Assembly (NCBI GenBank): GCA_001897475.1
Contig: MKSY01000016.1
Coordinates: forward strand, 1,177 to 65,176
Direction: 5' to 3'
Length of the DNA stretch: 64,000 nt
From: Alphaproteobacteria bacterium 43-37
GTDB taxonomy: Bacteria > Pseudomonadota > Alphaproteobacteria > 43-37
A program made the translations under genes and the position numbers. This document shows, piece after piece, positions 3,152-49,706 of the stretch; the first letter of the stretch is position 1, and each line of letters begins with the position of its first letter. The notes beneath the pieces were generated by a model that saw only the letters and a list, made by a program, of their open reading frames with translations, was not told the DNA's origin and ran no database searches.

Positions 3152-4381
3152 TCAGCCAGCTATGCCTTGGATCAATAAGTTGTAGATCTCCATTGCAATA
3201 ACGATAACGCCGGCAAAAATTATAGCAATGAGGATACTTTTGTTAGCTAATAGAGGGTAAAACAATACAGACTTTTTTTGATGAAAACCAGCTTTAAAAA
3301 ATAAGTATACGGGCAAGAATAATGCTATCACCACAAGAATCATGCCAGCAAATCCAAGTGCCTTGATAAAAGCGCTAGGGATAACCATGGCACAAAGTGT
3401 TGGCGGAATAAACGATAATAAAACCGGTATAATATGAGGCTTATTATTTATTGTATCGCTTGTCTTTTTCCAACTATCAATCAGGCCCATGCCGACCCCA
3501 ATGGCCGATGTGACCATGGAAAACGATGATGCAACCCAAACCAGCGCTTGCAGTATTTTTATATCCAAAATTTGGCTTAAATGAGATACTAATTCTCCGA
3601 TATCAATGCCTTGATGAAGCATGGCGGTATAAGCATCTGGCCTGTATAAACTAATAACTCCCACGACTGAAATAGTCCAAAGAATATAAATGATAGCCGG
3701 AATAAGGCTTCCCCAAAAAACAGCCCTTTTGAGGATAGTTTTATCCTTTTCACAGTAGTCAGTAATAGTATGGAAGATGACTTGAAATCCAAAAGAGGTA
3801 AAAACAACCGGAATACAAGCTGACCAAGTTTCTAAATTCCATGAGTTACCCGTTTCAATAGGTAATTGAGGCAAGTCAACTTTTACTATAAGGGCAACGA
3901 ATAGCAACGCCATCACGCCAATCTTTTTGGTTAAAAGAGTGCGATTAATGTAATCAACTGATGTTATGGAAAACAAGAGGATGGCCATCAAAAACAAACC
4001 AAAGCTAGCCATGGTGACATTAAGCGTTAGATTGAAGCCCACAACTGGCTTAAGCAGCGAAAAGATTGTTGAGCCACCACCGTATATGTAGGCCGCTAAC
4101 AAGGCATAGCAAAGCCCTTTAATGGACAAAAGGCCTATGGCTTCTGTTTTTGGTCCGCTAAATTTTTTAGCTAGAGCCCCTAATGGAAGCCCCGCTCCTG
4201 CTTTTAGATTGAGTTCCAAGCTGACGAGTGAAGAGATATACATGACTGTCCAAACGCCCAACATTAGGATTATACTTGGAATAATTCCCAATTTTGAAAG
4301 TGCCATAGGCAAAGCGATCATTCCAGCGCCTATTGAAGTCCCTGCAACAAGGCACATTGATCCAATCATTCGTTTGTTCAT
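3152..4381 (-). CDS. Aromatic amino acid (tyrosine/tryptophan-type) permease, HAAAP family
   Basis: 409 aa polytopic membrane protein. The N-terminus GSMCLVAGTSIGAGMIALP is typical of TyrP/Mtr transporters. Confidence 0.75.
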   Translation of the reverse strand: MNKRMIGSMCLVAGTSIGAGMIALPMALSKLGIIPSIILMLGVWTVMYISSLVSLELNLKAGAGLPLGALAKKFSGPKTEAIGLLSIKGLCYALLAAYIYGGGSTIFSLLKPVVGFNLTLNVTMASFGLFLMAILLFSITSVDYINRTLLTKKIGVMALLFVALIVKVDLPQLPIETGNSWNLETWSACIPVVFTSFGFQVIFHTITDYCEKDKTILKRAVFWGSLIPAIIYILWTISVVGVISLYRPDAYTAMLHQGIDIGELVSHLSQILDIKILQALVWVASSFSMVTSAIGVGMGLIDSWKKTSDTINNKPHIIPVLLSFIPPTLCAMVIPSAFIKALGFAGMILVVIALFLPVYLFFKAGFHQKKSVLFYPLLANKSILIAIIFAGVIVIAMEIYNLLIQGIAG

Positions 4382-4769
4382 AAAAAGCCCCTTTTGGCAA
4401 ATAATATTTGTTTTAATTTAAAACGGGAATCAAATTCAACAAGCTTTTATCCTGATGCGCATTGAATGTGGTGTAGTGATGACGAGAAAATCATAGTTAG
4501 CAAGAGATAGTTTGATCGCTTTTTGCACAAAGTTAGCTTTTTTGTAAGATAATTAGCTTGCTAAAAAAATGTAATCGTGTAATTTGACCGTGATGAAATA
4601 CAAAAAGATGACGATGACGGCGAAACTTGTTCTCTTCCATATAGTGAAGGGGTCAAGTTTTTTTGTTTAAGCTTTAAGTATTCATCAGGCCCTTTGGGCT
4701 TAAGAGTACGCTTATACCCATTTCTTTGGTATAGGCGTTTTATGAACTTAAATTTTTGGAGTACTACTA

Positions 4770-4979
4770 ATGAAGACCGGCACTGTTAAATGGTTTAATT
4801 CAACTAAAGGTTATGGTTTTATCCAACCAGACCAATCCGGGAGCGACATCTTTGTTCATATTTCTGCCGTACAACGTGCTGGACTGAATAATCTTCAAGA
4901 AGGTCAAAAAGTTAGCTACGAGCTCGTTACCAATAAAGGTCGCGCCTCTGCTGATAACTTGCAGCTTGTGAACGACTAA
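4770..4979 (+). CDS. cspA: Cold-shock protein CspA family
   Basis: 69 aa. Carries [12 protein letters not shown] (RNP1) and VFVHISAV (RNP2). It is preceded by a roughly 390 nt untranslated leader. Confidence 0.95.
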
Positions 4980-5002
4980 AACTATTTTAGTTTTTAAAAG
5001 GT

Positions 5003-5032
5003 GGGGAGCTTTAGCGCTCCCCATTTTTTTTG
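5003..5032 (+). terminator. Rho-independent terminator of cspA
   Basis: GGGGAGC...GCTCCCC stem followed by a T9 run, 24 nt after the cspA stop. Confidence 0.8.
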
Positions 5033-5039
5033 CATAGCA

Positions 5040-5325
5040 AAAAACCTTCACCTGCGGTGGGAGCTGTGACTGCCTCTTTGTCTCACTGTAACCCTCCCCT
5101 TGTCACTCCGCACCCCTTTTGTCTTTCCCGCGCGCCTTCTTTTGTCTTTCCCGCACTTGATGCGGGAACCCAGGCTTTTATATGGCCCCCCGCTTTCGCG
5201 AGGGTGACAAGAAAAAGAGCGAGAATGGCAGGGAAAAGAGCACAAGCGTGACAAGTGGAAAAGAGCGAGAATGGCAGGGAAAAGAGCACAAGCGTGACAA
5301 GTGGAAAAGAGCGAGGATGCACAAC
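5040..5325. repeat. Composite intergenic repeat, same family as 51690-52090. It has short tandem units, a 7-bp stem hairpin, a conserved core (CCCAGGCTTTTATATGGCCCCCCGCTTTCGCGAGGGTGACAAG) and 2.5 copies of a 46-bp tandem unit
   Basis: Direct sequence comparison with 51690-52090 shows a shared core of about 40 nt. The 46-bp unit GTGACAAG(T)GGAAAAGAGCGAGAATGGCAGGGAAAAGAGCACAAGC is repeated. The ORF-track ORFs inside this region are spurious. Confidence 0.85.
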
Positions 5326-5433
5326 TTTCTCAGAACTTAAGCAACTCTTTCCTCATACCTGACGGTGGAAGAAAACTCCAACCGGATAAACCTATATTTT
5401 GTTAGCACTTTAGCAGCCATCCATATTGATAAG

Positions 5434-6333
5434 TTATTTGTTTGGAAATTGCTCGATTTGCTTATAGAGATTATCCGGAAATGTAACATTCGCCCTGGCA
5501 AGCTCGCTGCGTACTTGCTTAAGAGCGCGGCGTAATAAGCCTGATTCACGCAACTTGCTTAAATGCTCTAACACAACATCCGAGTTATATCCGATCCTCT
5601 TTATTGGACCAAAGGTTGTCTCAAGCGTTTGTTCAGAAAAGTATTTCCACTTAGTATGTTGGAAAGCCGTTTCATAATCTCCTCTAACCAAATGACCATC
5701 TTGTGTTACATATAGTGCCCCAAGATCCGCAAACTCCTTCATTCCCACATACATCCACAGCGCGACCTCTTTCTCAATAGGATGTAACACTTTTACATTA
5801 GGCTCCAGTTGCGTTAGATTTGTCACTTCACTGGCTACACCAGCTACAAAACGTTCACCCTTATAACGCCCAAGAATAACACGGCTCTCTCCAATAGGAT
5901 TGAACTCAGCTAACTGGGCAACACAGGAGGCCACAATAGTGGCTAAATCTCGAAATGTTGGCGCTCCTTCTCGATTGAAAACAGCTCGCCATGTCCCGTT
6001 ATTGGGGCCATGAAATAAGGCTCGATCATCTGAAATATAAGTATCCAAAGGGTTGGAAAGCTCTTCACTAAATATGACATTATGCTGCAAAGCATCCAAC
6101 TCCGCCTTAAATTGGCTTTCATATTTTGATAAAAGCGCCTGCCTCACATCATTTGGCAGCATAACTGTTGTTTTATATATTGGTATACTTTGGTTTAGGA
6201 CAGCATGCTGCAACAAAGGAAAATGCTCCTCAAGGCTCACGCTGGTGTCAATTGGTAAACTATGCGCCCGTGCCTGCAGCCAACCAACAGAACATAACAA
6301 TAATAAGGCACCAAATACACGTTGTCTGATCAT
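5434..6333 (-). CDS. Hypothetical exported protein (Sec signal peptide)
   Basis: The ORF is 5434-6360. The preferred start is the ATG at 6333 (MIRQRVFGALLLLCSVGWLQARA/HS, AGGAGG 10 nt upstream). No recognisable family. Confidence 0.6.
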   Translation of the reverse strand: MIRQRVFGALLLLCSVGWLQARAHSLPIDTSVSLEEHFPLLQHAVLNQSIPIYKTTVMLPNDVRQALLSKYESQFKAELDALQHNVIFSEELSNPLDTYISDDRALFHGPNNGTWRAVFNREGAPTFRDLATIVASCVAQLAEFNPIGESRVILGRYKGERFVAGVASEVTNLTQLEPNVKVLHPIEKEVALWMYVGMKEFADLGALYVTQDGHLVRGDYETAFQHTKWKYFSEQTLETTFGPIKRIGYNSDVVLEHLSKLRESGLLRRALKQVRSELARANVTFPDNLYKQIEQFPNK

Positions 6334-6593: not shown

Positions 6594-7160
6594 CTACCTA
6601 GCTAAGCTAGGGTCAATCCAACCTATATTCCCGTCCTGACGACGAAATACAACGTTCAATTGCCCATTGGCATTATTCTTAAACATGAGCAGCTGTTGAT
6701 CCGTGATATCCAAGCGCATAATGGCCTCTGAGACTGTCATGGGTAAAATTTTCGTAGCCATCTCTGCTATGACAATTGGATTATTCGTTGAATCATGGTC
6801 AGATTCATCGCCTGAATACACAACTTGTTTAATGGTTGTTTCTTCGATTGATTCAGCTTCAGGCTTGTGATGATCACGCAAACGATTTTTATGGCGACGA
6901 AGTGTTTTGCCTACTTTCTCGACTGTGAGGTCGATGCATACATAAGGGTCATCATCCATTGCATGACAGCGTATAACAATCCCCTTGCCTATATGAATGG
7001 ACATGTCACACCTAAAATGAGATGACTCTTTTGATACAATAACTGTCGCCTCAATTGGATTATGAAAATATTTTTCCGTCGTATTATTCAGACTTTGGCG
7101 AATATAATCTCTTAGTGAATCACCAATATTAAGATTCTTTCCGCTGATTGTTAATTGCAT
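6594..7160 (-). CDS. hpf: Ribosome hibernation promoting factor, long form (HPF / sigma-54 modulation protein)
   Basis: 188 aa. The N-terminus MQLTISGKNLNIGDSLRDYI is typical of YfiA/HPF, and the protein has the C-terminal extension of long HPFs. Confidence 0.9.
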   Translation of the reverse strand: MQLTISGKNLNIGDSLRDYIRQSLNNTTEKYFHNPIEATVIVSKESSHFRCDMSIHIGKGIVIRCHAMDDDPYVCIDLTVEKVGKTLRRHKNRLRDHHKPEAESIEETTIKQVVYSGDESDHDSTNNPIVIAEMATKILPMTVSEAIMRLDITDQQLLMFKNNANGQLNVVFRRQDGNIGWIDPSLAR

Positions 7161-7239
7161 ATTGCACCCATTTAAAACACGTTTCTGTTATAGATCTTAT
7201 TTTAGGGCCTTTAACTTTAGCTCGTCAATGAAGATAGTA

Positions 7240-7275
7240 TAAAAAGGGGAGGATTTCCCCCCCCCCCCTTTTTTA
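7240..7275 (-). terminator. GC hairpin with a C12 homopolymer, followed by a T run. Putative terminator of the patatin-like gene
   Basis: AAAAAGGGGAGGATTTCCCCCCCCCCCCTTTTTT. Read on the minus strand it is G12...CCCC followed by T5. Confidence 0.5.
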
Positions 7276-7281
7276 ATACAC

Positions 7282-8442
7282 TTATGCGACTTTAGTTTTT
7301 TTTACTTTTGAAGCGCCTTGGCTCACAAATTTATGAACGCTGGATCCCTTATGAGAAGCGCCACGTTTTGTGTTTAGCCATGGTGCAGCTTCCATAACTC
7401 TATTCATATCGCTGTAACCATGTGTTGCACGATCAACGATAGAAGTCCTGGAAAACTCACAATCCTTTGATGAGACTTCATAAACAGGAGCGCGATAGAT
7501 GCACTGGACAATATCAAAATCAAAATCTGCAGCAAAACTTTGCAGCTCTTGAACGATTGGATCCTTTTGAGCGCTTGCACCGAGTGATTTAATCAAATGA
7601 TTGACGGCTTTGCGCAGGTTATGCTTCTCAGATGTATGACCAATATGGTGAGCTGTACGTGAAGCATAAAGAATATCTTTGGAGCGTGCAGAAACATCGT
7701 CCATATTCTTTGGCTCTTCACCTTCTGCACTGAACAAATCAATCATAAAGCATAGGGTATGAACTTTAGGATTAATGTTCATAATGCCTTCTAGTGGTGT
7801 GTTGGTAACGCAGCCACCATCCCAATGCATATCGCCATCGATAACCATGGGTGGGAATCCTGGAGGCATTGAACCGCTGGCCATGACATGCTCTGGGCCA
7901 ATTTTGATTTTCTCACTATCGAAGAACACCAATTCACCCGTGCTAACTTTAACGGCGCCTAAAAGGAGTCGTGTAGCATTTCGGTTGATCCGGTCAAAAT
8001 CAACAAAGTTAAGTAATGTTTCACGAAGTGGCGATGTGTCATAATAACTCAAGGCCGGAATAGTTCCCTCTTTTTGAAGCTGAGGAACAGGATTGCGTGG
8101 CTCAAAAAAGTTTGGTTGGCCAAAAATAAATCCCTGCATTGAACTAAATGTATTATGCTTACGACGCATTTCTACGTTCATTGGTAGATCTTCAGCAAAA
8201 TCTGGATAGGAAATTGTTTTCCAAAACTCTTTTAACGCTGAAACGCGATTTTTTGGTTCATTTCCCGCGATAAGAGCGGCTGTGAATGCGCCAATGGAAA
8301 TGCCACTAACAACATCAGGCAAATAACCTGCTTCATCCATAGCTTGGTATGCCCCAATATGGTACGCTCCGAGTGATCCACCACCTTGGCAGGCTAAGGC
8401 GATCCTCTCATAACCGTGGGTTTTTCCACTACCTTTACTCAT
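7282..8442 (-). CDS. Patatin-like phospholipase family protein
   Basis: 386 aa. Oxyanion motif GGGSLGAYHIG and nucleophile motif GISIG (GxSxG), followed later by a DGG motif. Confidence 0.9.
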   Translation of the reverse strand: MSKGSGKTHGYERIALACQGGGSLGAYHIGAYQAMDEAGYLPDVVSGISIGAFTAALIAGNEPKNRVSALKEFWKTISYPDFAEDLPMNVEMRRKHNTFSSMQGFIFGQPNFFEPRNPVPQLQKEGTIPALSYYDTSPLRETLLNFVDFDRINRNATRLLLGAVKVSTGELVFFDSEKIKIGPEHVMASGSMPPGFPPMVIDGDMHWDGGCVTNTPLEGIMNINPKVHTLCFMIDLFSAEGEEPKNMDDVSARSKDILYASRTAHHIGHTSEKHNLRKAVNHLIKSLGASAQKDPIVQELQSFAADFDFDIVQCIYRAPVYEVSSKDCEFSRTSIVDRATHGYSDMNRVMEAAPWLNTKRGASHKGSSVHKFVSQGASKVKKTKVA

Positions 8443-41783: not shown

Positions 41784-43085
41784 GTGATTCAACAGTGGTT
41801 TAAAGACACTAAGGTATACCTCGAACCTCGTATTATTGCCATCGGGTTTCTAGGTTTCTTTAGTGGCCTTCCACTTCCCATTACCACATCAACCCTCACT
41901 TTTTGGCTTTCAAAAGTTGGCGTCAATTATACGTCTCTTGGCCTTTTTGCATTAGCTGGCATTCCATACACTTTAAAGTTCTTATGGGCTCCATTGCTTG
42001 ATAATATGAGAATCCCACTGTTGACCAGCTTTTTTGGCCAACGTAGAGGCTGGATGATTTTTGCTCAAATTGGATTGATTATTTCTTTCTTTGGTTTAGC
42101 CTTTTCAGATCCACAAACCCACCTTGAACATGTTGCCATTTGGATATTTCTTGTATCTACTTTTAGTGCCACTCAAGACATCGCCATTGACGCTTATCGC
42201 GTAGAAACTTTAAATGACCGCCAATATGGTGCCGGAGCGGCTATTGGCGTCCTTGGATATCGCATTGGTATGCTAGCTTCAGGGGCAGGTGCGATTGTTT
42301 TTGCTAGTTATTACGGCTGGCAAACATGCTTTACTTTAGTTGCTATTGTTATGTCCTTGGGTGTGATTGCTGTACTTTCGCAGCCAGAACCTTTTCGGTT
42401 AACTGGAAGTGAAAATGAGCAACAAAGCTTGCTCTCTCACGATCAGGCAGCGCGCGTTAGCAGATGGATTACGGATACAATTGCATCACCGTTTAAAAAT
42501 TTTATGAGTAAGCCCTATTGGTTATTAGTCATTATCTTTATCCTCATCTACAAGGTAAGTGATGCTATGATTGGCCATATGGCAACTCCACTTTACAATT
42601 ATTTGCAATTCACACCGGGTGAAATTGCAGCGGCTGCGAAAGTTTTTGGCCTTTGGGCTACTATTGCTGGTGGCTTTATTGGGGGAATTATCACCACCAG
42701 ATTAACCATTGGAAAGGCGCTTTTCATTGGAGCCATTTTGCAAACAGTTTCGAATGCCGCTTATCTTATTTTGCTTGCTAATGGCCACCAACTTACCATT
42801 TTATATTCAACTATCCTTATAGAAAACTTATGCAGCGGAATTTCCACTGCTGCTTTAATAGCTTATTTGTGTCATCTTTGTTCTGTGCAATTTGCAGCCA
42901 CACAATTTGCTCTCATGAGTGCCCTTGCCGCTATCCCCCGCACTGTATTTGCAGCTTCGTCGGGTTATCTTGTCGATAAACTAGGCTGGACACAATTTTT
43001 TATTGCAACAATTATTTTAGGCATTCCTGCTATTGGGCTAGCATGGTTCTTTGCAAATAAGAGCGTGCAGCATCATGAAGCTTGA
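41784..43085 (+). CDS. ampG: AmpG-family MFS permease, paralog 1
   Basis: 433 aa, 12-14 TM. N-terminal AmpG pattern IAIGFLGFFSGLP...LKFLWAPLLD...FGQRRGW. Confidence 0.8.
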   Translation: MIQQWFKDTKVYLEPRIIAIGFLGFFSGLPLPITTSTLTFWLSKVGVNYTSLGLFALAGIPYTLKFLWAPLLDNMRIPLLTSFFGQRRGWMIFAQIGLIISFFGLAFSDPQTHLEHVAIWIFLVSTFSATQDIAIDAYRVETLNDRQYGAGAAIGVLGYRIGMLASGAGAIVFASYYGWQTCFTLVAIVMSLGVIAVLSQPEPFRLTGSENEQQSLLSHDQAARVSRWITDTIASPFKNFMSKPYWLLVIIFILIYKVSDAMIGHMATPLYNYLQFTPGEIAAAAKVFGLWATIAGGFIGGIITTRLTIGKALFIGAILQTVSNAAYLILLANGHQLTILYSTILIENLCSGISTAALIAYLCHLCSVQFAATQFALMSALAAIPRTVFAASSGYLVDKLGWTQFFIATIILGIPAIGLAWFFANKSVQHHEA

Positions 43086-43131
43086 TGTTTTTCTTCTCAA
43101 TGAGTAACAACTCTATGAACAGGTATAAAAA

Positions 43132-44469
43132 GTGAAAGAACGTTGGAAAAAAATTTACCGCAAATTCTCTGACCGCAGAATTGTGACGCAGCTTTTCTTA
43201 GGTTTCTCTGGGGGCCTTCCTTTTTTGCTTACAGGCCAGACCTTTAACCACTGGCTAAAAAAATCAAATGTTAGTTTAACTGAAATAGGTTTTTTAGCCA
43301 TTATTGCAGCACCATATTTTCTACGTTTTCTCTGGGCTCCAATCATTGACCATACCCATATTCCTTACCTCACAAACCGGTTAGGCCAACGACGTAGCTG
43401 GGCACTTTTGAGTCAAACTAGCTTAATTATAAGTATTCTTGCCCTATCATTTTGCAACCCATCACAAAACATTTTGGCTACAGCCTTTTGCGCCTTCTTG
43501 GTTGCCCTTTCATCTGCTACCCAGGATATTGTTTTGGATGCCTACCGCGTAGAAATATTAGACAAATCTGAATATGGTATTGGCGCTTCCAACTACGTTC
43601 TCGGTTATCGCATCGGCATTATGATTGCTGGTTCTGGGGCTATATTTTTATCCACTGCCTTAAACTGGAATCTCACCTACAGAATTGTAGCAGTCCTTGT
43701 TCTTGTTGGGATGATAACTATTCTTCGTAGCCCTGAGCCACGCCAGGAGAATAGACAAAGCAATGAGCATAATAGCCTTAAAAATAAACCTGATGAGCAA
43801 AATGCTTTAAAGTGGTATGGACACACCATATGGAGCATTCTCAAAGATTTTTCCCATCAGCAAAAATGGGGAGCTGTTATTGCCTTTATTATGCTTTACA
43901 AAATTAGCGATAACTTGCTTGGCGGGATGTTTAATCCATTTTTGCTTGATATTGGATTTTTAGACACTTCAATTGCGTGGGCTCAGAATGTTGGTCTATG
44001 GACGAGTATTTTTGGAGCGACTCTAGCGGGGATCTTGATCAGCCGATTTGGCCTTTTTAACATTATGATTTTATGCGGTATTTTAGAAGCTGTATCTAAC
44101 CTTATGTTTGTTTTGCTTGCTAAAACAGGCGCCAGCTTGCCGCTGCTTTACGTATCAACAATTATTGAAAATGTCACTAGCGGTATGGCTGTCGCGGCTT
44201 ACGTTACGTTCTTATCCAGCGTTTGTAGCGTATCTTCTACCGCAACACATTATGCCATCATGACATCCCTATCCTCATTTGGCCGCATTATTGTTTGCCT
44301 CCCTTCTGGCTGGATCGCGGAACATCATGGCTGGTCCAAATTCTTCAGCCTATCTGCGCTAGCGGGTATACCAGCGGTAATACTGTTATTTTATGTTGGC
44401 CCACGCTTATTAAATAAACGAATTGATGGAAATGAAACTGACGACGAAGCTGCAGCAAAAACTACTTAA
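43132..44469 (+). CDS. AmpG-family MFS permease, paralog 2
   Basis: 445 aa with a GTG start. Same motifs (LKFLWAPIID, LGQRRSW). Confidence 0.75.
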   Translation: MKERWKKIYRKFSDRRIVTQLFLGFSGGLPFLLTGQTFNHWLKKSNVSLTEIGFLAIIAAPYFLRFLWAPIIDHTHIPYLTNRLGQRRSWALLSQTSLIISILALSFCNPSQNILATAFCAFLVALSSATQDIVLDAYRVEILDKSEYGIGASNYVLGYRIGIMIAGSGAIFLSTALNWNLTYRIVAVLVLVGMITILRSPEPRQENRQSNEHNSLKNKPDEQNALKWYGHTIWSILKDFSHQQKWGAVIAFIMLYKISDNLLGGMFNPFLLDIGFLDTSIAWAQNVGLWTSIFGATLAGILISRFGLFNIMILCGILEAVSNLMFVLLAKTGASLPLLYVSTIIENVTSGMAVAAYVTFLSSVCSVSSTATHYAIMTSLSSFGRIIVCLPSGWIAEHHGWSKFFSLSALAGIPAVILLFYVGPRLLNKRIDGNETDDEAAAKTT

Positions 44470-45742
44470 CTTCCTCAAAGGCTTTGCGGATAAGAAGGTA
44501 CTCACTCTCTTGTTGTTCGGCATTTCAAGTGCTGTGCCGTATGTTATGATCTTGGGCACACTTAGTGTTTGGTTAACGGAAATTGGCTTTACAAAAACAC
44601 TGATTGGTTATTTTGCTATTATTAGTGCAACTTATCCTTTCAAATTTTTATGGGCTCCCTACGTTGATACTTGGCAGATACCTTGGCTTGGCAAACGTTT
44701 AGGTCAACGCCGAAGCTGGATATTATGTAGCCAGGTAGCCGTTATCATTGGCTTGATTCTTATGGGATGGACCAATCCTGTCGAACAGTTTGTTCCATTC
44801 ATTTGTTTTAGCATTCTTGTGGCATTTGCCTCTGCTATCCAGGATATAGCCGTTGAAGCTTATCGGGTAGAAACTTTATCTGTAACTCAGCTTGGATTTG
44901 GCGCTGGCATGAGCGGATTTGGTTATCGCATTGGTATGTTAACGGCAGGAGCAGGATCTTTATATGTTTCATCCTTTTTTAGCTCTTGGACTATGGCCTA
45001 TACGATTATGTCTTTTTTAGTAGGCCTTGGGATTATGGCTGTCTGGCTTGCCGAAGAACCTCTTTTAATTGATAAAATGGCCACAACCTCATTTAATAAG
45101 CGCTCATTCATTGATAGCGCAAAACAGTTCTTCCATCAGCCTAAATCATGGGCAATGTTCATATTTATTGCGCTTTATAAAATGAACGATGCGATGGTTA
45201 TGGTCATGATGGCTCCTTTTGTTGAGCATATTGGCTTTACGAAAGTGGATATTGCCAACATCGTTAAATTGCTCGGAACAGGTATGATGATGTTTGGGGC
45301 ATTAAGTGGTGGGTTTCTCATGTCCAGGTTTGGCAGCTTTTTAACCTTGCGAGCTTGCATAGCATCCTTAACAAGTGTTAGTAGCCTTTTCATCATCCTA
45401 TCTCTTCTTGGCCATAATTATATGATGCTCACCGCTACTATGGCTATTGAGCATTTTGTCAGCGGTATGTTCTCCTCGTCTTTGATTGCCTATCTTTGCA
45501 CAAAGTGTCGCCCTGGAAACGCTGGAGCTGACTTTGCTTTCATCTCTTCCTACAACTCATTTTGCCGTGTGGTTTTTTCATTCTTCTCTGGCTGGCTGGC
45601 CGATCATTTAGGTTGGACCGGTTTTTTCTCACTAATTTTAGTAGCCACCATTCCGGGCATCTTTTTAATCAATCGTTTTAAAGACGTTTTCAGTACTATC
45701 CCTCCAGCCCACGATAATTCGATTATATCGGTCTTAAAGTAA
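44423..45742 (+). CDS. AmpG-family MFS permease, paralog 3
   Basis: 439 aa. Same motifs (FKFLWAPYVD, LGQRRSW). The start is ambiguous (ATGs at 44423, 44426 and 44432) and overlaps the end of paralog 2. Confidence 0.75.
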   Translation: MMEMKLTTKLQQKLLNFLKGFADKKVLTLLLFGISSAVPYVMILGTLSVWLTEIGFTKTLIGYFAIISATYPFKFLWAPYVDTWQIPWLGKRLGQRRSWILCSQVAVIIGLILMGWTNPVEQFVPFICFSILVAFASAIQDIAVEAYRVETLSVTQLGFGAGMSGFGYRIGMLTAGAGSLYVSSFFSSWTMAYTIMSFLVGLGIMAVWLAEEPLLIDKMATTSFNKRSFIDSAKQFFHQPKSWAMFIFIALYKMNDAMVMVMMAPFVEHIGFTKVDIANIVKLLGTGMMMFGALSGGFLMSRFGSFLTLRACIASLTSVSSLFIILSLLGHNYMMLTATMAIEHFVSGMFSSSLIAYLCTKCRPGNAGADFAFISSYNSFCRVVFSFFSGWLADHLGWTGFFSLILVATIPGIFLINRFKDVFSTIPPAHDNSIISVLK

Positions 45743-45832
45743 CCCTTGACCACACATTCGATTTGTGTAACGGTATTCAAGATACTGATGAAAAATAATA
45801 AACGTTGAAACCTTAAACCGTACATAAGGAAA

Positions 45833-46477
45833 ATGAGCATGCCCAATAATCATGGCGGCACGAGGCATGGTGCAGGTCGCCCACCTGGAACAGGCAAATA
45901 TAAACAGCCGACAACTGTAGTCCGCATTCCACAAAATCTTCTGCCAACAGTCCATGCCTTGTTGAAGAATCCCTCACCTGATTACGGAAGCCCGACTAAT
46001 AATAACCATGAGCTGGCCATAAATCCACTCGCCTATCCCCATGGCGAAGGCATTGCCTCCGTCAGTAGCGTTGATCAATCATCTACACACGCTTTGGTTC
46101 CCCTTTATGAAAGTCGTGTTGCAGCAGGATTTCCCTCCCCAGCCAGTGATTATGAGGAAGGAAAAATCGATTTAAACGATATGCTCATTCGCCATCCAGC
46201 GGCTACGTTTCTGGTACGTGTACAAGGTGAATCTATGTTAGGGGCAGGCATTCATCCAAATGATATCCTTGTGGTTGATCGCTCGCTTACACCTAACCCT
46301 GGGCGTATTGTTATCGCTGTAGTAGATGGCGAGCTCACCGTTAAACGGCTACTTAAGGCACACAATCAAATCATTCTCATGCCTGAGAACGAAGCCTTCC
46401 AGCCTATACATATTTCTGATCAACAAAACTTTATGGTCTGGGGCGTGGTCACCAATGTGATCCACTCGGTACTGTGA
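45833..46477 (+). CDS. umuD: UmuD-like S24 autopeptidase with a roughly 90-aa N-terminal extension
   Basis: C-terminal 120 aa match UmuD almost motif for motif: AAGFPSPASDYEEGKIDLNDMLIRHPAATFLVRVQGESM...TVKRL...VWGVV. It has an Ala-Gly cleavage site, a Ser in GESM and a Lys in TVKRL. The extension contains a strand-helix segment (TTVVRIPQNLLPTVHALLKN). Confidence 0.85.
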   Translation: MSMPNNHGGTRHGAGRPPGTGKYKQPTTVVRIPQNLLPTVHALLKNPSPDYGSPTNNNHELAINPLAYPHGEGIASVSSVDQSSTHALVPLYESRVAAGFPSPASDYEEGKIDLNDMLIRHPAATFLVRVQGESMLGAGIHPNDILVVDRSLTPNPGRIVIAVVDGELTVKRLLKAHNQIILMPENEAFQPIHISDQQNFMVWGVVTNVIHSVL

Positions 46478-46726
46478 GTGGGCATTAGTTGGGGCCCTGA
46501 TGAATGGCGTTTTACAAGTAAAAAATTTAACGTAGTGTGATTTTATAGCAACCAGTTTTTACCGCCATTTAAATTATGAATCGTAACAATCCAAACAATC
46601 ATAGTTGCCAAATTTAGGAAGCCTATCTAGGATTAAAATCTGTAGCGTTGTACAAATTGTGGATTAAAGATGATTAAGCGCCCTATGTAGATTGAAGAAA
46701 ATGATAATGCCACCAATGTAAGCCAT

Positions 46727-47698
46727 TTACTTGAAACTATGATTTTGAAGCCATGTTTTGCTTATGTCACTCTTCAAAGTTGACAACATAAAGTCGCGAA
46801 AGGCTCTTATTTTTGCATTATCTTTTCCATAAGCTGGATAAACTAAATTAACTGCCCCACCAATGCTCATTGCTGGATCATATAGCCCTTGAAACAATTG
46901 AATAAACTCAGTGTTTCTTGCTAAATACTTAGGTATTGTACCAATTCCTAAGCCGTTTTGTATTAGAAGTTTGCATTGAACAGTATCATCCATAATAGCT
47001 GTATGCGCTCTAGGGGAACTACACTTTCGTCCTAGGTAAAGTAGCGGATTATTCTTGGCATCATCTCGATAATCTGTGTAAGCATTATTCCACTCATAAC
47101 GAAAGATATTATGGCAGTCTAAATCTTCGAAGGTTTCAGGCAAGCCATATTTATCAATATAGCTTTTGTGAGCATATGGATAAAATTCTGCTTTTCCTAG
47201 CTCTTTCCAAATAAACAACGAATTGTTTGGTATTGGTAACCCTGTTAAACCCACAAAAGCACCATTTAATTGCCCGGCATAAGTAAGGGCTTTAGATTCC
47301 TCCGCCCTAACATTTAAAAAAACAGTTGGATACCGCACATGGAATTCTCCTCCATATTCTGAAATGAAAGCTCGACAAAAATTCTCGCCAATCACACGGA
47401 GTTCGCCAGAAGCACCGTATTGGATTTCGCGAATATCAGCCGTTAGCTTTTCAACGTTCTCGTAGATATTTGAAGCATGTTGCTCGAGGTACTGTCCAGC
47501 TTCGGTTAAAATTAATCCTGTTGAATATGCTTTAAGCAATTCAACATCTCCTAACTGTTCTTCAAGTCGTTTGATCCGCCGGCTTACTGTTGGCTGTTCC
47601 ACACCGATAACTTCCGAAGCTTCAGTCAATGTTTTGCACTGAACCACAGTCATAAACGTTTTCAGGAGGTCAATATCAATCATGTAAAACCTTGTCAA
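46727..47698 (-). CDS. LysR-family transcriptional regulator
   Basis: 323 aa. N-terminal HTH LTEASEVIGVEQPTVSRRIKRLEEQLG and a C-terminal substrate-binding domain. Confidence 0.9.
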   Translation of the reverse strand: MTRFYMIDIDLLKTFMTVVQCKTLTEASEVIGVEQPTVSRRIKRLEEQLGDVELLKAYSTGLILTEAGQYLEQHASNIYENVEKLTADIREIQYGASGELRVIGENFCRAFISEYGGEFHVRYPTVFLNVRAEESKALTYAGQLNGAFVGLTGLPIPNNSLFIWKELGKAEFYPYAHKSYIDKYGLPETFEDLDCHNIFRYEWNNAYTDYRDDAKNNPLLYLGRKCSSPRAHTAIMDDTVQCKLLIQNGLGIGTIPKYLARNTEFIQLFQGLYDPAMSIGGAVNLVYPAYGKDNAKIRAFRDFMLSTLKSDISKTWLQNHSFK

Positions 47699-47880
47699 AT
47701 ATCTTAAGCCAACAGCTCATAACATACCCATTAATAGTTAAAAAAAACCTCAGCCTTTTGAGGAGCTGAGGGTTCTTTCTGCGGTCTTCAATCTGGCCCT
47801 TATCTTGCGGCCTTGTCCATTGATATAAAGTTTTATAGCAAATCTTATGGGCAGATTAAATAGACTCTCATGTATTCATT

Positions 47881-47901
47881 GCATACCAGATGAGTATATG
47901 C
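47881..47901. promoter_or_regulatory. Candidate LysR-type (T-N11-A) operator: GCATAC-N7-GTATATGC interrupted dyad
   Basis: Inverted repeat ATAC-N7-GTAT in the lysR-umuC intergenic region, about 150 bp upstream of umuC. Confidence 0.35.
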
Positions 47902-48039
47902 TTTGGCTTAAAAACACTCTTGCATCTTATTTTGATTTATGTAACGATAATCATGTGGCGCTATAATCCTCATATTGAAAGGGCAGGATCATGAAAAACA
48001 TTTCTCAAAACTATTTAACAACAACACTGTGGTGATTTC

Positions 48040-49323
48040 ATGAACAACACTTCTTCTTACCAGGAGGCATACAAACCCATTGCCCTACTCGATTGCAATA
48101 ATTTCTATGTCTCCTGCGAGAGGGCTTTTAACCCGAAGCTTCACAACAAGCCTGTTGTTGTCCTTTCGAATAATGATGGATGCGTGGTTGCTCGTTCACA
48201 GGAAGCAAAGCAACTTGGGATCAAAATGGGCATTCCATTTTTCCAAATCCGCCACCTTGTGCACGAGCAAGGTTTGACTACCTTATCTTCCAATTATGCT
48301 TTGTATGCGGATATGTCAAACCGTTGTATGCACCTTATTAAGCAGTTTTCACCACGCATTGAAATTTATTCCATTGATGAAAGCTTTATGGATCTTAGCC
48401 ATATTCCAGAAAGCTGCTTGATGGAGTATGCAATCAGCATTCAAGACACTATCGAGACTGTTTTAGGCCTGCCGATTTCGATCGGGATCGCGGCCAACAA
48501 AACACTCGCTAAAGTGACTAGCTTGTTTGCAAAAAAACACCCAGAGGGGATCTTTATGATCAATCGACAACACCAATTAGGCCCTCTCTTGAGCCAAATC
48601 CCAGTTGAAGGCATATGGGGCATTGGTCACCGTCTTTCCCTAAGGCTTCGTAAAAAAGGGATTTATACAGCCGAAGACTTGAGGCAATGCCGCATGAGTC
48701 ATCAATTTAATCATTTTGATGTTCAATTACGACGCTTGATTCTTGAGCTAGATGGTGTTTGTTGTCGCCCTGTTGAAGAAGAGGCTAGCGATCCTAAAAG
48801 CATTGCTTGTACCCGTTCTTTCATGAAAGGCCAGACATCTTTACACACTCTTGGCGAAGCTGTTGCGACATTTGCTTCAAAAGCGGCTGAGAAGCTGCGC
48901 AAATCCAAGCAACATGCACGAGCTGTGATGGTTTATCTAAGAACCAGCCCATTTAAACAACCTGATTCTTTTTATAAAAACACAGCCATTATTCCTCTCT
49001 CCCCTTCCACAGCGGATACCCGGCGAATCATTCAGGCTAGTTTAACTGCATTAAACAGCATTTTTAAACCGAACCTAACGTACCAAAAAGCAGGTGTCAT
49101 TTTGCTTGATTTGCTAGCAGAACAATCATATGACGCCACATTATTCGAAACACGCCAAGATAATCATCGTCTTATGGAGGTCCTTGATAACACTAATGCG
49201 AGGTTTGGTGTGGGCACTCTCAAATTTTTAGCTGCAGGCGTCAACAACGCTTGGATAACCTTGCCACAAAACCGCTCACCACGATACACGACGCATGTGA
49301 AAGAGTTGATGGTAGTATCTTAA
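48040..49323 (+). CDS. umuC: Translesion DNA polymerase V catalytic subunit (Y-family polymerase)
   Basis: 427 aa. [12 protein letters not shown]...[15 protein letters not shown]...IYSIDESF. The C-terminal motif SPRYTT is diagnostic of UmuC/MucB rather than DinB. Confidence 0.9.
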
Positions 49324-49391: not shown

Positions 49392-49706
49392 ATGAAAAAT
49401 ATCACAGATGAATCTTTTGAAACCGACGTTATACAGTCCGACCTCCCAGTAGTCGTTGATTTTTGGGCTGAATGGTGTGGCCCCTGCCGCATGCTCGCGC
49501 CCGTTTTGGATGAATTATCCGAAGAGCTTTCAGGGAAGGTTTCCATCGTCAAAATAAATATTGATGAAAACCCTGAAATACCTACCAGCTTTGGAATAAG
49601 ATCTATCCCAACCTTAATGATTTTCAAAGGTGGGGAAAGAATCGCCGTTCAAACTGGTGGATCCCCAAAAACGAGTCTTAAGTCCTGGATTGAGTCTAAT
49701 ATATAA
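49392..49706 (+). CDS. trxA: Thioredoxin
   Basis: 104 aa. Active site WAEWCGPCR. Confidence 0.95.
   Translation: MKNITDESFETDVIQSDLPVVVDFWAEWCGPCRMLAPVLDELSEELSGKVSIVKINIDENPEIPTSFGIRSIPTLMIFKGGERIAVQTGGSPKTSLKSWIESNI

Follow-up and report, generated by a model that had tools for sequence, protein, structure and literature searches.

What controls a mutagenic polymerase whose two genes have been parted by a regulator of another family? The question is raised by a 64,000-nucleotide (nt) stretch of the metagenome-assembled genome (MAG) of Alphaproteobacteria bacterium 43-37 (contig MKSY01000016.1, positions 1,177 to 65,176; hereafter the window), in which umuD and umuC, the genes of the accessory and catalytic subunits of DNA polymerase V (Pol V), are separated by a LysR-type gene on the opposite strand. 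A first-pass annotation of the DNA had drawn attention to this order and suggested that umuC is controlled by a LysR-type signal, possibly instead of LexA, or alternatively that an insertion had uncoupled the two genes. We suggest that the locus is probably a UmuDAb-type, LexA-independent SOS-mutagenesis module carrying lysR as a passenger, and that the polymerase would be controlled by a long, self-cleaving UmuD and not by LysR.

The gene order itself is real. The listing of open reading frames (ORFs) together with Pfam and NCBIfam matches places umuD at 45839-46477 on the plus strand (212 amino acids, aa; 214 aa from an alternative start at 45833), lysR at 46727-47683 on the minus strand (318 aa, extendable to a TTG at 47698) and umuC at 48040-49323 on the plus strand, as first annotated. 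The umuD-umuC spacer is 1562 nt, and the region between lysR and umuC measures 341-356 nt depending on the lysR start chosen; the shorter value (47699-48039) corresponds to the upstream region of about 340 bp with which umuC had been credited. LysR has both expected domains, HTH_1 (PF00126, E = 2.5e-15) and LysR_substrate (PF03466, E = 5e-11). In UmuC, a Y-family polymerase of the Pol V catalytic subunit type, IMS, IMS_C and DUF4113 are all found by Pfam, and the protein scores 389 bits (E = 2e-116) on NCBIfam PRK03609, under the curated cut-off of 431, so that by these profile matches it is clearly UmuC-like though divergent. The locus is present on five public contigs of the same species, which are 99.6-100% identical and thus carry no population-level signal of selection on lysR.

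The long UmuD and its N-terminal domain

At 212-214 aa, a length on which the first-pass annotation had not remarked, the window UmuD extends about 75 aa beyond the 139 aa of E. coli UmuD, a difference that sets it apart from the canonical LexA-regulated umuDC operon of that organism, with which it shares the combination of an S24-type UmuD and a Y-family UmuC bearing DUF4113. The protein is laid out as a UmuDAb-like N-terminal domain (residues ~4-44), a low-complexity linker and a C-terminal Peptidase_S24 domain (residues 90-206; Pfam PF00717, E = 5e-31). The N-terminal domain reads GGxRxGAGR...PTxxxRxP followed by a helix, and a Pfam scan of the first 87 residues found no family at E <= 10. 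The motif GGxRxGAGRPxGxGxYxEPTxxxRxPxxL hardly varies among 117 homologs, and long UmuDs encoded on Acinetobacter, Legionella, Sulfuricella and Synechococcus plasmids are full-length tblastn matches to the window UmuD, showing the N-terminal extension to be a conserved domain.

The resemblance is to UmuDAb, the regulator of the UmuDAb-DdrR regulon of Acinetobacter baumannii and A. baylyi, likewise a long UmuD with a homologous N-terminal domain (GG-R-xAGR...EPT..R.P plus helix). BLASTP aligns the window UmuD with the genuine A. baumannii UmuDAb over residues 5-205, N-terminal domain included, at 38% identity (E = 1e-41), and in an eight-sequence alignment that includes UmuDAb the residues G6, G7, R9, A12, G13, R14, P24, T25, R29 and P31 are invariant. 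The cleavage site A96-G97 and the catalytic residues S132 and K169 align with A83-G84, S119 and K156 of UmuDAb with identical spacings (PMC4807011), the more distal cleavage site (96/97 versus 83/84) reflecting a longer linker in the window protein. The N-terminal ~45 residues are thus homologous, by alignment, to the DNA-binding N-terminal domain of Acinetobacter UmuDAb, and the C-terminal S24 domain keeps the predicted Ala-Gly cleavage site and Ser/Lys dyad; as in the canonical operon, RecA*-dependent cleavage of UmuD would be expected. Mutation of UmuDAb residues E24 and K40/N41 is described in the literature as impairing binding and repression, and these positions map to the conserved EPT motif and to the helix that follows it.

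The reference protein for this comparison was reached by way of DNA. A protein search with an Acinetobacter plasmid UmuD did not reach UmuDAb itself, and the gene was found with the published 37-nt probe for electrophoretic mobility shift assays, which was searched in PLSDB and led to A. baumannii chromosomes. The ORF adjoining the probe match (203 aa; L098, 1574-2185) is divergent from ddrR, and its product begins MPKKKE and ends LKRMR, matching the published cloning primers. Three A. baumannii replicons of 3.6-4.1 Mb that PLSDB labels as plasmids (NZ_CP077849.1, NZ_CP104448.1 and NZ_CP064203.1) are almost unannotated and evidently chromosomes.

In an AlphaFold2 model of the window UmuD, an extended segment and one helix (residues 32-43) precede a disordered linker, beyond which the S24 domain is modeled confidently; the predicted local distance difference test score (pLDDT) is 81-91 at residues 21-40. 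Residues 1-45 (45839-45973) are modeled as a basic Gly/Arg-rich arm followed by that extended segment and helix. The predicted fold is unlike the helix-turn-helix (HTH) threaded in the UmuDAb literature, a difference that a monomer model cannot settle, and the domain may pair as a ribbon-helix in a dimer. Self-cleaving S24 proteins that combine a non-LexA DNA-binding domain with control of error-prone polymerase genes also include HdiR of Streptococcaceae and the phage-CI-like 'non-canonical LexA' of Bacteroidetes (PMC8565304). [quoted passage not shown]

Paired operators at the umuD and umuC promoters

The longest direct repeat of the region, 23 nt, has one copy upstream of umuD (45757-45779) and the other upstream of umuC (47931-47953). 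The pattern derived from it, a putative 23-bp operator of the form T(T/C)GA-N5-GTAAC-N5-TCA(A/T), has just two matches in the 64 kb, one overlapping each core promoter: O_D at 45758-45780 (TCGA-TTTGT-GTAAC-GGTAT-TCAA) and O_C at 47932-47954 (TTGA-TTTAT-GTAAC-GATAA-TCAT). Each begins 6 nt past a -35-like hexamer, and its GTAAC core overlaps the -10 position. At umuD the plus-strand -35 element TTGACC (45746-45751) is followed by a 16-nt spacer and a putative -10 element, TAACGG, that overlaps the operator core; at umuC the plus-strand element TTGCAT (47920-47925) is followed by a 16-nt spacer and TAACGA. The umuD layout TTGACC-16 nt-TAAC(G/A)N recurs in two relatives, of which L097 keeps O_D and L009 has its core and right arm. 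O_C is kept in the close relatives L009 and L010, which lack lysR, and both share with the window an identical umuC promoter block, CTCTTGCATC(T/A)TATTTTGATTTATGTAAC. The same promoter/operator layout is seen at a stand-alone long umuD of 54% identity (L011, site TTGATTCTGGTAACGTGATTC).

The arm/core design of these sites is that of the published UmuDAb operator, TTGA-N4-GTnAC-N4-TCAA, for example TTGA-AAAT-GTAAC-TTTT-TCAA, whose 5-bp GTnAC core is essential and counts more for binding than either arm (PMC11332147). On this basis the 23-bp sites at umuD and umuC are conserved putative operators of UmuDAb design: palindromic, with TTGA/TCAA arms around a central GTnAC core, overlapping a promoter, and present at two places, the gene of the regulator itself and a umuC that has its own promoter. 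In Acinetobacter the separately promoted umuC genes are the unlinked A1S_2008 and A1S_2015. The two systems differ in that the window sites cover the promoter spacer and -10 region, and the Acinetobacter operator covers the -35 element. They also differ in host, an alphaproteobacterial MAG here and not a member of the Moraxellaceae.

LexA boxes of either the alpha-type (GTTC-N7-GTTC) or the gamma-type (CTGT-N8-ACAG) are absent from the 64-kb window, as is a second S24 gene, and in this the locus again departs from the canonical umuDC operon. The departure extends to gene spacing, the pair not being tight even in relatives that lack lysR, where a spacer of 174-187 nt holds a second promoter and operator. 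Judged by its sequence, the locus therefore does not look like a canonical LexA-controlled umuDC operon; it has the UmuDAb features of N-terminal domain, cleavage site and operators at its own and the umuC promoters, and lacks that of DdrR. The suggestion that umuC might be controlled by something other than LexA may have been right in spirit.

Between the umuC promoter and the gene lies a plus-strand upstream ORF of 14 codons (47991-48035) that stops 4 nt before the umuC ATG. In L009 its counterpart has 10 codons (~5532-5564), with the start context GATCATGAAAA kept and a different peptide. Such an ORF could serve umuC as a leader or in translational coupling.

The lysR insertion

A search with UmuD identified three close relatives, 80-83% identical, which show what the spacer looks like without lysR. 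On the P0003 contig (JGI 3300059473; UmuD 80% identical), compared by gene coordinates, umuD (3403-4029) and umuC (4207-5502) are separated by a gap of 177 nt without lysR, and trx follows (5570-5884), the same right-hand neighbor as in the window, where trxA occupies 49392-49706. L009 and L010 (UmuD 82% identical) likewise have no lysR after umuD; their sequence ends shortly after umuD, and the stretch CTCTTGCATCATATTTTGATTTATGTAACATTAATCAT, 70 nt past the umuD stop, equals window block 47917-47955, with the umuC start about 100 nt further on. Pairwise and multiple alignments agree that homology with the window ends about 10 nt past the umuD stop and resumes between 47866 and 47907. The intervening ~1.4 kb (approximately 46488-47906) holds lysR with its flanks, a terminator hairpin and the candidate LysR-type regulator dyad discussed below, and has no counterpart in the 174-187-nt spacers of the relatives.

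More distant loci have umuC directly after umuD: the two genes are contiguous in Sulfurirhabdus (L001), overlapping by design (5995/5998), and on a Legionella israelensis plasmid (L096; 3022/3023), and lie 31 nt apart on an A. baumannii plasmid (L095). A scan of genome contigs with UmuC returned only relatives of 38-45% identity, without close synteny, and these served as outgroups. As relatives have umuD-umuC-trx without lysR, comparison of gene order shows the ~1.4 kb with its orphan lysR to be an insertion, confined to the window species, into an existing spacer just 5' of the umuC promoter and operator; a single gain of lysR in this species is the parsimonious reading. The insertion that had been offered as an alternative thus holds, and the uncoupling attributed to it does not, since relatives without lysR already have a spacer and a separate umuC promoter and operator, which are kept intact here. 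That pre-existing promoter and operator may explain why the insertion was tolerated. The first-pass annotation had also named relatives sharing the three-gene order, with umuC behind a recognizable SOS box, as telling against its proposal; such a box, of UmuDAb type, is recognizable at umuC, and the three-gene order occurs in none of the relatives.

The inserted gene has few kin. Among 5.8 billion proteins the LysR has a single homolog at 47% identity, all others being at most 33% identical, and the second LysR of the window is 22% identical. The homolog lies on an unrelated-looking contig of 1.8 kb (L014), and the adjacency of lysR and umuC was found in no relative examined. A BLAST comparison of the insert with the rest of the window revealed no repeats, insertion sequence (IS) ends or miniature inverted-repeat transposable element (MITE), and an 11-nt direct repeat, TTTTATAGCAA (46541 and 47831), considered as a target-site duplication, was no better than another chance 11-mer repeat there. 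On the minus strand TAAGAT at 47701-47706 is a possible -10 element of lysR, and TTAAGATA occurs at -24 and -28 of the lysR ATG in the window and in L014. In L014 the LysR-homolog gene is followed by a degenerate duplicate of about 150 nt of its own middle (1410-1560), which hints at local rearrangement around the LysR-type gene in another organism too.

The proposed LysR input on umuC depended on a dyad at 47881-47901, which does exist (GCATA-N11-TATGC) and formally fits the T-N11-A class. It had been called textbook, a description that does not survive closer inspection: its arms are 5 bp, or GCATAC-N7-GTAT[AT]GC with a 2-nt bulge, the DNA around it, where the insert has its right junction, is not conserved, and dyads whose arms reach 5 bp or more, with spacers of 5-13 nt, occur at 12.9 per kb across the AT-rich window. 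Six such dyads fall within the 341 nt between lysR and umuC, for which dinucleotide shuffles give 4.6 +/- 2.6, and one of the six, TGATT-N11-AATCA (47933-47953), is the SOS operator itself, which formally also belongs to the T-N11-A class. Some 195 nt separate the dyad from the lysR ATG, and an intrinsic terminator lies between the two. The upstream region of the LysR homolog in L014 lacks this dyad and has another, perfect one, ATGAAT-N11-ATTCAT, which precedes the ATG by 114-136 nt and of which the window retains one half-site at most. A LysR site common to the two upstream regions was sought, and only chance-level words were found; a 10/11 match, GCWATGAATAC, has an expectation of about 0.8 by chance, as estimated from the sequence lengths.

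The terminator is a minus-strand hairpin (47740-47771) with its stem at 47748-47771 and a U8 tail at 47740-47747 (A8 on the plus strand). The stem has 8 bp, 5 of them G-C pairs (-17.8 kcal/mol, z = -1.7). The hairpin with a T8 tail first annotated here is therefore real, with its tail on the minus strand, and only there does it form a good intrinsic terminator, upstream of lysR and on the strand that lysR occupies; the plus-strand structure is weaker, with a 7-bp stem, a 10-nt loop and the tail GTTCTTTCT. It had been suggested that the hairpin may insulate lysR from antisense read-through, which it cannot do for plus-strand transcripts from umuD, since these would reach it only after crossing lysR. 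The minus-strand terminator has no ORF ending ahead of it, and an Rfam search of 45500-48200 at E <= 1 returned nothing, leaving no known small RNA or riboswitch that ends there. The hairpin is part of the insert and appears to be a relic.

In classical divergent pairs of a LysR-type transcriptional regulator (LTTR) and its target, such as ampR-ampC and ilvY-ilvC, the two genes share a compact control region. The window resembles them in that lysR is divergent from its neighbor and a formal T-N11-A dyad stands upstream of umuC, and differs in the 341-356-nt intergenic region with a minus-strand terminator, in a dyad that is at chance level and not conserved, in a pairing present in no relative, and in an LTTR that is an orphan without orthologs of known function. 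By its sequence, then, the locus does not appear to be such a pair. LysR input on umuC through the dyad is unlikely; LysR is most likely a tolerated passenger, and we infer that its target is another gene or that it controls none of its neighbors.

The left flank of umuD has been rearranged as well, since three tandem paralogs of AmpG-family muropeptide transporters of the major facilitator superfamily (MFS) stand immediately 5' of umuD in the same direction (41784-45742, plus strand) and the relatives have different neighbors there, a Peptidase_M23 gene and an unknown gene of about 360 aa. Further to the right, the window has tandem repeats at 51698-52073, comprising a 22-nt unit present eight times (51698-51878) and a 118-nt unit present twice (51838-52073), which yield spurious repetitive ORFs in several frames. 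A huge minus-strand ORF of 1484-1487 aa follows (52200-56663), with no Pfam match recorded in any public contig copy.

Control of the locus and its kin in other bacteria

The model that best accommodates these features is one in which dimers of a UmuDAb-type protein would occupy O_D and O_C and occlude both promoters. The binder would most simply be the adjacent long UmuD, with a stand-alone paralog encoded at another place in the genome as the alternative. Upon DNA damage, RecA*-stimulated self-cleavage at Ala96-Gly97 would remove the DNA-binding domain and so derepress umuD and umuC together, and the same cut would give the UmuD'-like fragment needed by UmuC. As only one umuD is visible, its product presumably serves as the Pol V subunit too. 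Any read-through from umuD would now run antisense across lysR.

The association of domain and box extends well beyond the window. A box of the form T[TC]GA-N13-15-TC[AT]A within 130 nt upstream was found at eight of nine long-umuD genes and at 4 of 61 short-umuD genes (Fisher p = 4e-7), in a test on the loci collected in this analysis, deduplicated by protein; the ninth long-umuD gene keeps the core and right arm. The control loci came from a metagenome-contig scan with an alignment of close UmuDs, which returned 80 distant, mostly short-UmuD loci and none of the close relatives. Alpha-, beta- and gammaproteobacteria are all represented among the long-umuD loci, as are plasmids of Legionella and Acinetobacter, and the spacing between the arms varies from N13 in Acinetobacter (GTnAC core) through N14 in Legionella israelensis and Sulfurirhabdus (GTAC core), also in L037 and L045, to N15 in the window clade (GTAAC core).

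Two plasmids encode long UmuDs with the same N-terminal domain, A. baumannii pBJAB0715 (L095, 2501-3079) and the L. israelensis plasmid (L096, 2486-3022), and their umuDC operons have a TTGA...GT(n)AC...TCAA box 34-40 nt 5' of the start codon. To our knowledge, Legionella is reported to be without a classical SOS system. Plasmid umuDC cassettes of Acinetobacter and Legionella may thus be self-regulated; with LexA motifs that differ between groups and cassettes carried on plasmids, a self-contained regulator-operator pair is the simplest reading. In L011 a tandem array of five 122-nt units (6779-7373) lies directly 3' of the stand-alone long umuD, with no umuC adjoining.

Among the explanations that compete with a UmuDAb-type circuit, co-option of LysR for umuC was the starting point. 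LysR would bind the dyad and, in answer to a small-molecule signal, switch the umuC promoter on or off, alone or atop the SOS operator. The gene is intact with both domains, it is divergent from umuC as is typical of LTTR-target arrangements, and the dyad centre (47891) falls near -64 of the inferred umuC promoter. Yet the dyad is no more frequent than chance and, lying in junction DNA, is probably a product of the insertion itself; the distance and terminator between it and the lysR ATG leave no shared divergent-promoter site, the sole ortholog has a different candidate site, no relative has the adjacency, and the umuC promoter and operator do not differ from those of relatives that lack lysR. 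We consider this explanation very improbable. Slightly less credible still is an ancestral lysR, with the three-gene order older and the gene deleted in the relatives. For it speak the small number of close lineages available for comparison, two, and insert flanks without recognizable mobile-element ends or a convincing target-site duplication. Against it, all outgroups examined have umuC directly after umuD, both close relatives have similar spacers, the gene is known elsewhere only from the one 47% homolog, and a single insertion is a more parsimonious account than a precise deletion after which two lineages kept an intact spacer.

A more serious competitor, which we nonetheless regard as unlikely, is that the 23-bp sites serve a repressor encoded elsewhere, be it a LexA, canonical or divergent, or a dedicated UmuDAb-type paralog that stands alone, leaving the adjacent UmuD only as polymerase subunit. 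Stand-alone long umuD genes with the same box do exist in related metagenomes, as in L011, and one (P0005) was recovered from the sample that also yielded the umuD-umuC relative P0003. In Acinetobacter, repression needs the dedicated UmuDAb and not the operon-encoded UmuD paralogs (PMC4807011). What argues the other way is that the box travels with domain-bearing umuD genes over contigs of three proteobacterial classes and over plasmids, that the host LexA motif differs between those groups, that the window has neither LexA boxes nor a second S24 gene, and that the N-terminal domain is strongly conserved in the operon-encoded proteins.

Several observations weigh against a UmuDAb-type module controlled by its own UmuD, and they belong together here. 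The operator spacers are N5 (23 bp in all) and not the N4 (21 bp) of the Acinetobacter operator, one extra bp per spacer, and the left arm is degenerate at umuD sites (TCGA in the window, TGGT in L009). A scan for the sigma-70 consensus did not call the umuD and umuC promoters because their -10 elements (TAACGN) are weak, and their assignment rests on the -35 element, spacing and box kept in five or six promoters and not on consensus strength. No ddrR lies beside umuD or elsewhere in the window, tblastn of A. baumannii DdrR giving nothing better than E = 0.6. Acinetobacter UmuD paralogs of 192 aa in umuDC operons carry the same N-terminal domain and box, and in ATCC 17978 the loss of just umuDAb is enough to derepress the umuDC operons (PMC4807011); if the ATCC 17978 paralogs are of the long type, the domain alone may be insufficient for repression. 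The inspected DNA amounts to 64 kb of the genome, and LexA or a stand-alone UmuDAb-type paralog, of which related samples have examples (P0005 and P0006), may be the real binder. The dyad centre occupies a classical LTTR recognition-site position, about 64 nt 5' of the inferred umuC start site. Finally, the polarity of the insertion rests on two close relatives, with DNA for one lineage, and on the outgroups.

We further propose, more tentatively than for the locus itself, that UmuDAb-type regulation may be a widespread, self-contained and horizontally mobile cassette of a long UmuD with a short DNA-binding domain at its N terminus, a TTGA-N13-15-TCAA operator and umuC, in which, here, one DdrR-less protein would be both the SOS repressor of two promoters and, once self-cleaved, the Pol V accessory subunit. 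In the literature searched, UmuDAb is described as Acinetobacter-specific and no paper treats homologs elsewhere, an absence that is not proof. The evidence at the locus points to an ordinary gene insertion and not to a new principle of metabolite-sensing LysR control over a mutagenic polymerase. What the locus resembles is a UmuDAb-type SOS-mutagenesis circuit outside Acinetobacter, with the same domain and operator logic, another spacing and no DdrR. If this is true, UmuDAb would be a single case within a broad family of Pol V cassettes that regulate themselves and not a genus-specific oddity; the N-terminal motif and the box together would provide a simple rule by which LexA-independent mutagenesis control could be predicted in genomes and plasmids, those of Legionella included, and the natural spacing variants N13, N14 and N15 would offer a means of dissecting how a core-dependent operator is read.

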